A stretch of 53,237 nt of DNA. It comes from Ignavibacteria bacterium. GTDB taxonomy: Bacteria > Bacteroidota > Ignavibacteria > Kapaibacteriales > Kapaibacteriaceae. Numbering within the stretch: position 1 is the stretch's first letter; the number at the start of each line of letters is the position of its first letter. Of this stretch, positions 1-4,957 are shown one piece after another. Where the stretch lies: the NCBI GenBank assembly GCA_947459875.1, contig CANHFG010000005.1, positions 1 to 53,237 on the forward strand. The letters are read 5' to 3'. The notes under the pieces are model-generated. The model was not told where the DNA came from and did not search any database. It saw only the letters and a program-made list of their open reading frames with translations. The translations under genes and the position numbers were made by a program.

Positions 1-1211
1 ATGAGTGGGAACTCACCAAGAGTCCGGCCGGTGCCCAGCAGTGGCGTCCTAAGGGCGGAGCGGCAGCTGACGCTGTCCCGGATGCACACGATCCGGCAAA
101 GCGCCATGCACCGATGATGCTGACCACAGATCTGGCTCTGCGCGTCGATCCGGCGTATGAGAAGATCTCACGCCGCTTCTACGAGAAGCCGGACGAGTTC
201 GCCGACGCATTTGCCCGCGCTTGGTTTAAGCTTACGCACCGTGATATGGGCCCGCGCGCCCGGTACATCGGCTCGGAAGTTCCGGCTGAATTACTCATCT
301 GGCAGGATCCGGTCCCAGCCGTGGATCATCCGCTTGTTGGTGATGCTGAAGTTGCTGAGCTCAAGTCGATGATCGCAGCTTCGGGACTCTCGGTTTCGCA
401 GCTCGTAGCCACAGCATGGGCTTCGGCTTCGACGTTCCGCGGCTCCGATAGGCGCGGCGGCGCTAACGGCGCTCGCCTGCGTCTTTCACCGCAGAAGTAC
501 TGGGCGGCCAACGATCCGGCACAGCTTTCATCGGTACTCGACGCACTCGAGTCAATTCAGAATACGTTCAACAGCTCACGCACAGACGGCAAGCGCATCT
601 CGATGGCCGACCTGATCGTCCTCGGCGGATGTGCCGGCGTCGAGCAGGCTGCCGCCGCTGCCGGACAGGCAGTAACGGTTCCGTTCACTCCTGGCCGCAC
701 GGATGCATCGCAGGAGCATACCGACGTTGAATCGTTTGCCGTGCTGGAGCCCGTCGCCGATGGGTTCCGCAACTATGCCAAGGGGCACCTGTCGATCAAC
801 GCCGAAGAGCTGCTTATTGACAAGGCCCAACTCCTGACGCTGAACGCACCGGAGATGACAGCACTCGTCGGCGGCATGCGCGCACTGAATGCCAATACCG
901 GCGGCGCATCGCACGGTGTGCTGACTTCGCGTCCAGGCGTGTTGACCAACGACTTCTTCGTGAACCTCCTCGACGTTCGTACAACGTGGGCACCAACGTC
1001 GGCACATAACGATGTATTCGTCGGCAAGGATCGCATCACCGGTGAAGAGCGCTGGACAGGTACCCGCGTCGATCTCATTTTCGGATCGAACTCCGAACTG
1101 CGCGCTATCGCCGAAGTTTATGCCTGCTCGGACAGCCATGCCAAGTTCGTGCACGACTTCGTCGCTGCATGGACCAAGGTCATGAATCTCGATAGGTTTG
1201 ATCTGGCGTAA
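1..1211 (+). CDS. katG: Catalase-peroxidase KatG, 5'-truncated by the window edge
   Basis: Frame is open from position 3 ([14 protein letters not shown]). Motifs [46 protein letters not shown] and C-terminal [12 protein letters not shown]. Confidence 0.97.
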
Positions 1212-1237
1212 GCAATCGCATGTAAATGTCAGTGTTT

Positions 1238-1270
1238 CGGGGCCGTTGGATTGCATTTCCGGCGGCCCCG
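1238..1270. terminator. Hairpin between convergent katG and the downstream gene, probable terminator
   Basis: CGGGGCCGTTGGA-ttgcatt-TCCGGCGGCCCCG forms a 13-bp stem with 2 G-U pairs. A homologous hairpin with a compensatory change lies at 4984-5018. Confidence 0.7.
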
Positions 1271-1332
1271 TACATTTTCGAAGAAGTATGGACGCTGGTT
1301 CTTTAGTCAGCTTTTATGATCTGTCGCCTGTA

Positions 1333-3900: not shown

Positions 3901-3979
3901 GTTCACTCCTCCAAAGATCATATTGTTTTCAGCACCAACTGTTAGAAACACATTTTGCTACGCGGTGCTCTTTGCTCCT

Positions 3980-4678
3980 CTATCTTGTGCAGCAGTTTTC
4001 GTTTTTCGGACAACCAACGAGTGCACAGGGACCCTGCCCGCAGTCGGCTCCGGCATCTGAACAATATCTCTCAAACCCTCCACTCGCTTCAGAAGTTGAA
4101 GGACCGTTCGCCGTCTGAACCCAGCGCATTTCATACCTGCAGCACAAGTCGCTACAGGCATATATACAGCCATCTGCCTGATTGACGATTGCACACTTCG
4201 GGCTAAACACCGTCCAACACCAGACACTGCCAATCGCAGGGGGAATGATTCCGTTGTTCCAGGAGCTGTCGCCGATCACGGGCTTCATTGTACACAGTAT
4301 TGCCGATAGTGTTCTCAATGGATTGATCGGCAGAGGCCGGGCTCCATTGAAACACACACGTCGAATCACCGTGTACTGGTTCTGCAGAAGTCCGGGGGTG
4401 CAGGTTGCTGGCAGATACGGCGGCGCGTTTTGTACAACGCTACAGCCATAGGCTGTAACGTTATACGTTTGGTTATCAATGCAGATATCCAGTGTTTTGA
4501 GTTCCACCGGGTTATCGCATGAACATCCCTGGGCGGTTAGATCCACATGCACTGACATCATCGCAACAAGTGCAACGGTGAACATAACAAGATGCGAGAG
4601 CACAGATACTCTCCAGTCGTCTCGCTTCGGCACACCATAAAACCTTGCGACACCGACCTGGTCATTGCACAGATGCAT
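3980..4678 (-). CDS. Cysteine-rich secreted protein (19 Cys in mature part), copy 1
   Basis: Hydrophobic leader ending LTA|QGCSC. Full-length paralog at 7715-8392 with identical Cys spacing. Confidence 0.8.
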   Translation of the reverse strand: MHLCNDQVGVARFYGVPKRDDWRVSVLSHLVMFTVALVAMMSVHVDLTAQGCSCDNPVELKTLDICIDNQTYNVTAYGCSVVQNAPPYLPATCTPGLLQNQYTVIRRVCFNGARPLPINPLRTLSAILCTMKPVIGDSSWNNGIIPPAIGSVWCWTVFSPKCAIVNQADGCIYACSDLCCRYEMRWVQTANGPSTSEASGGFERYCSDAGADCGQGPCALVGCPKNENCCTR

Positions 4679-4819
4679 AATCGAGTCCTCGATACTAATG
4701 GTTACAAATTCATTGGGTCAATCATCGCGACGTATGATAATTGTGTTCTGCCTCAGGTAAAACAGGACTTGTACTACCGCAGCTAAAATATAAGAGCCAA
4801 CAGAAACCTACGAGCATAT

Positions 4820-4957
4820 CTGATCTTCGGATCCAACTCCGAATTGCGAGGCATCGTCGAAGTCTACGCCTGCTCGGATAGCCATGCCAAGTTCGTGTAT
4901 GACTTCGTCGCAGCATGGACGAAGGTCATGAACCTCGATAGGTTTGATCTGGCATAA
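4820..4957 (+). pseudogene. katG: Orphan duplicate of the last 45 codons of katG
   Basis: Aligns without gaps to 1074-1211 and encodes [45 protein letters not shown]. In-frame TAA at 4784-4786 and no ATG between it and the fragment. Confidence 0.92.

Follow-up and report, generated by a model that had tools for sequence, protein, structure and literature searches.

Homology-facilitated illegitimate recombination (HFIR) has been reported in Streptococcus pneumoniae, Acinetobacter baylyi, Pseudomonas stutzeri and Escherichia coli during natural transformation or conjugation; its non-homologous joints usually carry 3–10 bp of microhomology, and the same report gives circularisation followed by a single crossover as an alternative (PMC3240628). 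HFIR has also been proposed for the effector–immunity arrays of the type VI secretion system of Vibrio cholerae, where a module enters via a conserved upstream gene and the old 3′ end is shifted back, a model that the article extends, by citation, to C-terminal displacement in Rhs proteins and to orphan modules of contact-dependent inhibition (PMC5361080). In E. coli, excision of e14 is described as rebuilding icd from icdC (PMC13626634). In the replacement flexible genomic islands of aquatic prokaryotes, the core genes at the borders were reported to show synonymous peaks, with ratios of non-synonymous to synonymous substitution (dN/dS) of 0.09–0.001 that were ascribed to recombination with divergent lineages (PMC4033161). 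Here we describe a locus in an uncultured freshwater Ignavibacteria bacterium at which the 3′ end of the catalase-peroxidase gene katG occurs twice, each copy being followed by a two-gene module. The window, that is, the whole stretch of DNA analysed, is contig C5, positions 1–53237, of genome G000, a 150-contig metagenome bin of 2.4 Mb that is 99.4% complete. We demonstrate the anatomy of this locus, its contiguity, the selection history of the displaced tail, the mosaicism of the genes involved and the uniqueness of the arrangement among relatives. It probably arose when two alleles, from related lineages, of a single module linked to katG were joined in tandem, with homology at one border and an illegitimate joint at the other.

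katG (3–1211, plus strand; NCBIfam PRK15061) has lost its 5′ part at the contig start, which falls inside the gene, leaving only the last 402 codons and the stop visible. This part matches the catalase-peroxidase profile at positions 324–724 of 725 (E 6.7e-203), and the N-terminal half has no match anywhere in the G000 assembly. The end of the gene in use (tail 1, the left repeat arm; 1072–1211, plus strand) pairs with 4818–4957 (tail 2, the displaced 3′ end; plus strand) at an offset of 3746 nt and with 0 indels, as seen by repeat search, blastn and codon comparison; the assignment of tail 2 also draws on a tree and on orthologs. Each tail consists of 45 codons and a stop. The two differ at 17 of 140 nt, spread over codon positions 1, 2 and 3 as 2, 2 and 13, and 15 codons are affected, 12 purely synonymously and 3 with a change of residue (A>G, A>V and H>Y); by the Nei–Gojobori method, dS is 0.73 and dN 0.029. 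Tail 2 is start-less: a TAA in the katG frame lies at 4784–4786, 11 codons upstream, and the first ATG, GTG or TTG after it is a TTG 8 codons inside the tail. Similarity between the copies runs on through a terminator hairpin into the next gene, as far as 1906 and 5657, respectively (78.5% across 846 aligned columns, E 1e-155; blastn). The original prediction, made from the sequence alone, had described this recurrence, its lack of indels, the 12 synonymous and 3 non-synonymous codons, the missing start and the continuation through the terminator, and every one of these observations held.

Upstream of tail 2, all similarity to katG and to the second unit ends abruptly at 4817|4818. Because homology stops there, we regard this position as an illegitimate joint. 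The borders carry no repeat of 8 nt or more resembling an attachment (att) site, a target duplication or an inverted repeat, only two isolated 8-mers that we judged to be chance. No integrase, transposase or resolvase came up when 35 open reading frames (ORFs; 6 + 29) of the 53-kb window were searched with Pfam, in agreement with what had been predicted for the unit; the sole recombinase-like matches were AAA-domain cross-hits (IstB, TniB) within a Clp ATPase. The layout is nevertheless like that of e14 at icd as described, in that the insert supplies a replacement 3′ end, the original C-terminal fragment is left as a pseudogene on the far side and the differences are mostly synonymous (PMC13626634). 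Unlike e14, which is site-specific, has its own integrase and excises, the G000 insert is devoid of an integrase, an att-type repeat or a phage gene. Its repeat is 140+ nt long at 88% identity and continues as diverged homology, with no short identical att core repeats at both ends.

The joint is present in independent assemblies. The runs that contain the window stretch are lake and freshwater metagenomes, and Logan contigs from 4 of 4 runs examined, belonging to 4 studies, span 4817/4818 with ≤1 mismatch (run X3, 1–5414; X4, 3304–5407; X7, 4290–5476; X8, 3592–5019). The same set of independent contigs also passes 1072, the X3 contig 1–5414 as a single piece. Depth is even over both units, and at 4817|4818 there is no sequence shared with the DNA upstream in katG that could mislead a k-mer assembler. 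An assembly chimera at this position is thus unlikely, and with the joint recovered in 4 runs of separate studies we treat the structure as real; the contiguity that the original prediction wished to see confirmed is borne out. In runs X9–X12, just 0.32–0.38 of the sampled words of 4200–5500 are present, and these runs might contain carriers of single-unit variants. X3 and X4 also hold a second haplotype with many linked differences at 7021–7108 and 8860–9075, within parts of big2 and orf486 (see below), so relatives with a module of the unit-2 type co-occur in the same waters.

Next, we considered the selection history of the displaced tail. Under a model in which chance alone placed the 17 differences, the expected number of amino-acid changes is 11.4, and the probability of 3 or fewer is < 1e-5. 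The synonymous bias of the tail alone is weaker evidence than this figure suggests, because one copy sits in a live gene and half of the changes would be expected to be synonymous anyway: with one live and one decaying copy and 8–9 random changes in the dead copy, P is 0.02–0.04, and up to 4–6 random changes in the dead tail are compatible with the data (P 0.24–0.77). The tail by itself is only moderately informative on its history. The neighbouring intergenic DNA provides the sharper contrast. Non-synonymous sites of the tails differ at 3 of 105 positions, compared with 34 of 118 intergenic sites (Fisher p 5e-8), and had tail 2 been decaying for half of the intergenic divergence, the probability of 3 or fewer differences at 105 sites would be 9e-5. 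As the intergenic DNA is so much more diverged than the non-synonymous tail sites, tail 2 must have acquired almost all of its differences while it was still part of a functional katG, and has been dead for at most ~0.03 substitutions per site. In a tree of both tails with katG orthologs, as the original prediction had proposed, tail 2 falls inside the clade of G000, G014, G012, G015 and G041 (support 98/96; branching within the clade is without resolution), to whose katG tails it is 84–89% identical. Its branch length of 0.11 compares with 0.095 for the working allele of G012, and it carries 3 private residue changes, the same number as G012. On these measures, tail 2 looks like an ordinary orthologous katG allele. 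The earlier claim that both tails evolved in functional katG alleles is therefore borne out, mainly through the intergenic contrast and less through the tail alone, and the data support a history in which purifying selection within working katG genes would have shaped both. The displaced gene end thus serves as a dated witness, its non-synonymous sites limiting the dead time to ~3% divergence.

Each tail is followed by a minus-strand module of one big and one small gene, convergent to katG. In unit 1, big1 (1333–3951, minus strand) encodes an 872-aa Sortilin/BNR-type propeller protein with a weak C-terminal sorting signal for the type IX secretion system (T9SS), and small1 (3980–4678, minus strand) encodes a 232-aa protein of no known family that combines a membrane helix at the N terminus with a Cys-rich domain; the small1 upstream region (4679–4817) ends at the joint. 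In unit 2, big2 (5080–7632, minus strand) encodes an 850-aa paralogue of big1 that is a mosaic, and small2 (7715–8392, minus strand) a 225-aa Cys-rich paralogue of small1. The big proteins give weak BNR and T9SS sorting-tail matches, and their Atlas neighbours are Sortilin/BNR propellers with a Por_Secre_tail; the small proteins share the N-terminal helix and ~18 conserved cysteines. The units are not young duplicates, because synonymous sites are saturated outside one short segment. The big1 and big2 proteins are 63% identical, and the proportion of synonymous sites that differ (pS) is 0.72 overall and 0.70–0.92 in blocks of the gene, falling to 0.32 in the last ~70 codons; between small1 and small2 it is 0.76. 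The mosaicism of big2 is visible in its affinities: its interior has 81–94% nucleotide identity to modules of G004, G044 and G018 and 56–69% to big1, whereas its last ~100 codons have 74–83% to big1 and 66–73% to G004 and G044. The modules of other species that unit 2 resembles in its interior occupy loci other than katG.

The only part of the units with moderate divergence between copies, which we call the K segment, starts with the katG tail and its terminator hairpin and, after a further 45 nt, takes in ~100 codons at the 3′ end of the convergent big gene. From a comparison of the units, copy 1 extends over 1072–1640 and copy 2 over 4818–5385, the right ends being approximate. Its hairpins lie at 1238–1270 (katG terminator, plus strand; 13-bp stem, −31.2 kcal/mol) and at 4985–5017 (katG-type terminator, plus strand; −26.8 kcal/mol), and a GC-rich hairpin ~20–40 nt past the katG stop occurs at 6 of 6 empty katG sites compared in relatives, as in both G000 copies. 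The 45 nt from the hairpin to the stop of the big gene are common to the two G000 units only and are found beside no other module. Because both units share the terminator and these 45 nt, we trace them to one ancestral junction of katG terminator and unit, not to two independent insertions. The junction has since diverged considerably. Over the 121/122-nt stretch from the katG stop to the big-gene stop, the 34 of 118 differing sites are accompanied by 7 gap columns; between copies, the 26 nt leading up to the hairpin can scarcely be aligned, and the terminator spacer together with the 45-nt piece has 71% identity.

katG itself has a mosaic history. Compared with 7 orthologs, its dN/dS is ~0.03–0.07. 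G000 and G014 differ at 87 of 1209 nt of katG, yet share an identical run of 284 nt at 897–1180, after which 8 differences are packed into the last 31 nt of the gene; in 150-nt windows, identity ranges from 85% to 100%, and outside the identical run it is 85–93%. The block 897–1180 is a recent inter-species exchange with G014 whose end lies 31 nt short of the stop. We also considered and rejected a crossover within the tail, as the reciprocal-chimera pattern it predicts is absent in both tails with G014 as reference; the breakpoint near 1180 belongs to the separate exchange between G000 and G014. From the G014-identical run and the mosaicism of big2, we conclude that homologous recombination between species occurs at this locus, and katG in this genus swaps pieces between species. 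Contigs start or stop inside katG in G000 and in at least 4 relatives (G012:C14, G015:C58, G003:C35/C117 and G023:C178), and these assembly breaks probably stem from mosaic, partly shared katG alleles among co-occurring species. Divergent surface-structure genes between conserved flanks, beside a mosaic katG with dN/dS in the range given above, are features that the locus has in common with the replacement islands as reported (PMC4033161). Unlike in those islands, the incoming version in G000 was added in tandem, and the genus representatives have an empty site.

To place the arrangement among relatives, we searched family-wide DNA with 1072–1700 as the query, covering 51 genomes including G000 at one genome per species. 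In 0 of the 50 other genomes did a match span the katG tail into a unit; outside G000, matches to the tail part and to the big part are separate. katG is present in 17 of 28 other genomes of the genus, among which we found no katG remnant: the only internal katG fragment is that in G000, and the other short katG matches (G003, G017 and G023) sit at contig ends. All 8 syntenic katG loci lead to radA, directly in G012, G041, G001 and G010 and via a small ORF, orf254, in G014, G015, G020 and G003, so that the content of the katG–radA interval varies among 9 genomes. The original prediction had proposed checking these intervals for 0, 1, 2 or more units, each behind a katG tail; 8 of 8 hold nothing or orf254, with no remnants. 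In G022 and G016, which belong to a group with 67%-identity katG, the DNA fetched around katG contained no radA. Small-plus-big modules elsewhere lie in non-syntenic contexts, and of the 10 module loci with an intact 3′ flank (G004:C24, G004:C71, G022:C5, G015:C59, G016:C48, L076, L077, L099, G044:C102 and G042:C166), none adjoins a katG piece; 5 further loci cut by contig ends (G018:C124, G001:C32, L074, L075 and L096) are outside this count. Record titles of the genus relatives name Ignavibacteria or Candidatus Kapaibacteriota metagenome-assembled genomes, except that L094, the contig of G022:C5, is titled 'Patescibacteria group bacterium', a label that looks inconsistent.

The history that we favour would begin with an ancestor in which one module, comprising a gene for a T9SS-tailed propeller and one for a Cys-rich membrane protein, inserted a few bases past the katG terminator and convergent to katG, creating a katG–K–module locus. 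Two or more related lineages would have inherited this locus, its copies drifting apart to about the distance between species; the interiors of the modules would either have gone well beyond that or have been brought in by exchange. DNA from one lineage would then have entered the other and been added, not exchanged: on one side by homologous recombination in katG or the K segment, on the other by illegitimate joining of the small1 upstream region (4817) to the resident katG at 4818, 140 nt ahead of its stop. One 3′ end would have stayed with the working katG, and the other, with its terminator, would have been displaced 3.7 kb downstream as a dead tail. As a single event, the simplest version would combine an incoming fragment running from katG through K to unit 1 with a resident locus of katG, K, unit 2 and orf486, meeting at 4817|4818; a mirror-image event with its anchor on the right is just as likely. 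The fragment may have entered as linear DNA by HFIR, or it may have been circularised and then integrated by a single RecA crossover, and neither route would need an element-encoded recombinase. We infer the existence of the second katG–K–module lineage, the direction of transfer and the route taken, and any viable history needs such a second lineage. The original prediction had a 3.7-kb unit from a related lineage added by a single crossover near 1074/4820; the related-lineage origin of the DNA stands, whereas a homologous crossover at 1072/4818 does not, because homology stops there. On this reading, the locus is a one-off, integrase-free recombination scar of a known kind, seen once, and reveals no new mobility mechanism.

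In its borders, the locus is like HFIR as reported: a segment is bounded by homology on one side and by a putative non-homologous joint on the other, with no element-encoded recombinase (PMC3240628). On the homologous side, katG, which is orthologous to the gene of relatives, and K are homologous to the resident chromosome (78.5%, 1072–1906 against 4818–5657). Unlike the HFIR studies, our case is read from one natural product, with an insert of 3.7 kb, and the illegitimate joint falls within the anchor gene, so that a 140-nt gene end was duplicated and resident DNA was not deleted. With the V. cholerae arrays, in the form described, it shares entry by homology, an older 3′ end and downstream genes pushed back, and the lack of an integrase. 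It departs from them in that katG, an unrelated stress gene whose transcription runs in the direction of the module, acts as anchor, that the modules encode surface or secreted propeller proteins rather than toxin–immunity pairs, and that one displacement is seen in one genome. Read in this way, an uncultured freshwater bacterium provides a clean natural case in which genes were gained through homology at one border and illegitimate joining at the opposite one.

Several observations weigh against the joining of two lineages. A lineage with a single katG–K–module locus was found in 0 of the 50 other family genomes, at one genome per species; 0 of 6 species-representative module loci from a scan with the small protein adjoin katG, nor do any of 4 family loci from a metagenome scan, 2 of which are truncated short of the end that matters. 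The donor or recipient of the big1 type that this history supposes is unsampled: among 5.8 billion proteins, the nearest relative of big1 outside its own cluster, whose record lists a longer contig of 88,894 nt carrying big1, has ≤63% identity. Any microhomology at the joint would lie in partner sequence (past 4817 in the donor, before 4818 in the recipient) of that unsampled type. Positions 1072–1180 of tail 1 lie within the G014-identical block, and part of the difference between the tails may come from later allele replacement and not from the joining. Rare alternative arrangements could also occur, as contiguity rests on short-read contigs. Homologues of ComEC and DprA are present in G000, but they were also matched in 10 and 11 of 14 control genomes, respectively, and say little about competence.

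An in-place tandem duplication of the tail–terminator–module segment, overwritten piecemeal by recombination with divergent alleles or modules, would gain from the mosaic katG, in which the G014-identical block covers most of tail 1, from the breakpoint in big2 ~100 codons before its stop and from the 4–6 random changes that the dead tail tolerates (P 0.24–0.77); another species might, for instance, have supplied katG and K of copy 1, and a module of the G004/G018 type the interior of copy 2. We nevertheless consider this sequence of events unlikely. It takes at least 3 events instead of one, and it still requires a foreign katG–K–module lineage for the diverged K segment, with its terminator spacer and 45 nt at 71% identity, a lineage as unsampled as in the joining of two alleles. 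A plain in-place duplication left to decay is excluded by the uneven divergence (pS 0.32 to >0.75) and by 3 of 105 tail sites differing compared with 34 of 118 intergenic sites. That the structure is an assembly or binning artefact joining two co-occurring strains or species is scarcely credible: a 150-contig metagenome bin, a contig starting inside a gene that also breaks contigs in G012, G015, G003 and G023, and related haplotypes in the same runs would all invite such an error, but both 4817|4818 and 1072 are crossed with ≤1 mismatch by independent contigs of the 4 runs, each from a different study, one of them covering 1–5414; depth is even across both units, and the joint has no shared sequence.

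The original prediction had taken the katG 3′ end for a recurrent, integrase-free capture site with an expandable cassette array, each unit preceded by a katG tail. Both units do follow a katG tail and no recombinase gene is present; the katG–radA interval is variable, being empty in 4 of 8 relatives and holding orf254 in 4 of 8; and small-plus-big modules occupy non-syntenic places in other genomes. This idea did not survive comparison with relatives and is very improbable. Recurrent independent insertions with varying unit number, as in an integron-like cassette array, were not seen in the 50 other family genomes or the 8 syntenic loci, where neither a unit nor a remnant lies at katG; 0 of 10 intact-flank module loci sit beside katG, the shared katG–terminator junction points to a single capture, and only one displacement event is visible. 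A related idea, that the K segment serves as a portable homology handle by which co-occurring lake species stack, swap or delete surface modules beside katG without a recombinase, is a long shot; if it were true, the G000 locus would give a first glimpse of one state of an array that needs no integrase and differs in copy number within populations. We also give very little credence to tail 2 being kept because it is used, either as a small translated peptide or as a spare katG 3′ end. Its frame is open, its amino acids are conserved, and through the 140-nt direct repeats unit 1 could be lost and a katG with tail 2 restored, in the manner described for e14 and icd (PMC13626634); against this, it has no start codon and a stop 11 codons upstream, its 3 private residues are absent at those positions in 8 orthologs, and no relative retains such a piece. 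With these alternatives weighed, the joining of two alleles from related lineages is the history that we retain.

Beyond small2, the interval continues with orf486 (8733–10193, plus strand), a gene of no known family that accompanies unit-2-type modules in G018, G022 and metagenome locus L074, and with orf254 (10235–10999, plus strand), the variable small ORF that lies between katG and radA in 4 of 8 relatives. The conserved right flank is radA (11046–12815, minus strand), beyond which lies a phytoene/squalene synthase gene. The radA ORF (589 aa) is too long by ~138 codons at its N terminus, where it overlaps the divergent synthase gene, and most relatives align from MKIRT...; the true start is probably near 12401, ~138 codons into the ORF. 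No Pfam or NCBIfam family was found for small1, small2, orf486 or orf254, the small-protein profile and orf486 had no match in a PDB sequence search, and PADLOC gave no match for the 6 insert proteins. An AlphaFold2 model of small1 from a 7-sequence alignment had a mean predicted local distance difference test score of 34.3 and a predicted template modelling score of 0.22, only the N-terminal helix at 21–42 being modelled with any confidence. Among the modules of relatives, a 22-residue remnant is what is left in G018:C124 (L029, 2233–2482) of the small Cys-rich gene that separates the big2-like gene from orf486, and in G044:C102 (L083) a tandem array of ~15-nt units (GGTACAAGGTACTAG-like) lies just past the big-gene stop. 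Farther along the window, at 31500–37219 on the minus strand, neighbouring genes for two subtilases (Peptidase_S8; 948 and 959 aa) form another tandem pair of secreted proteins, one of which gives a weak, below-cut-off match to the T9SS sorting tail.

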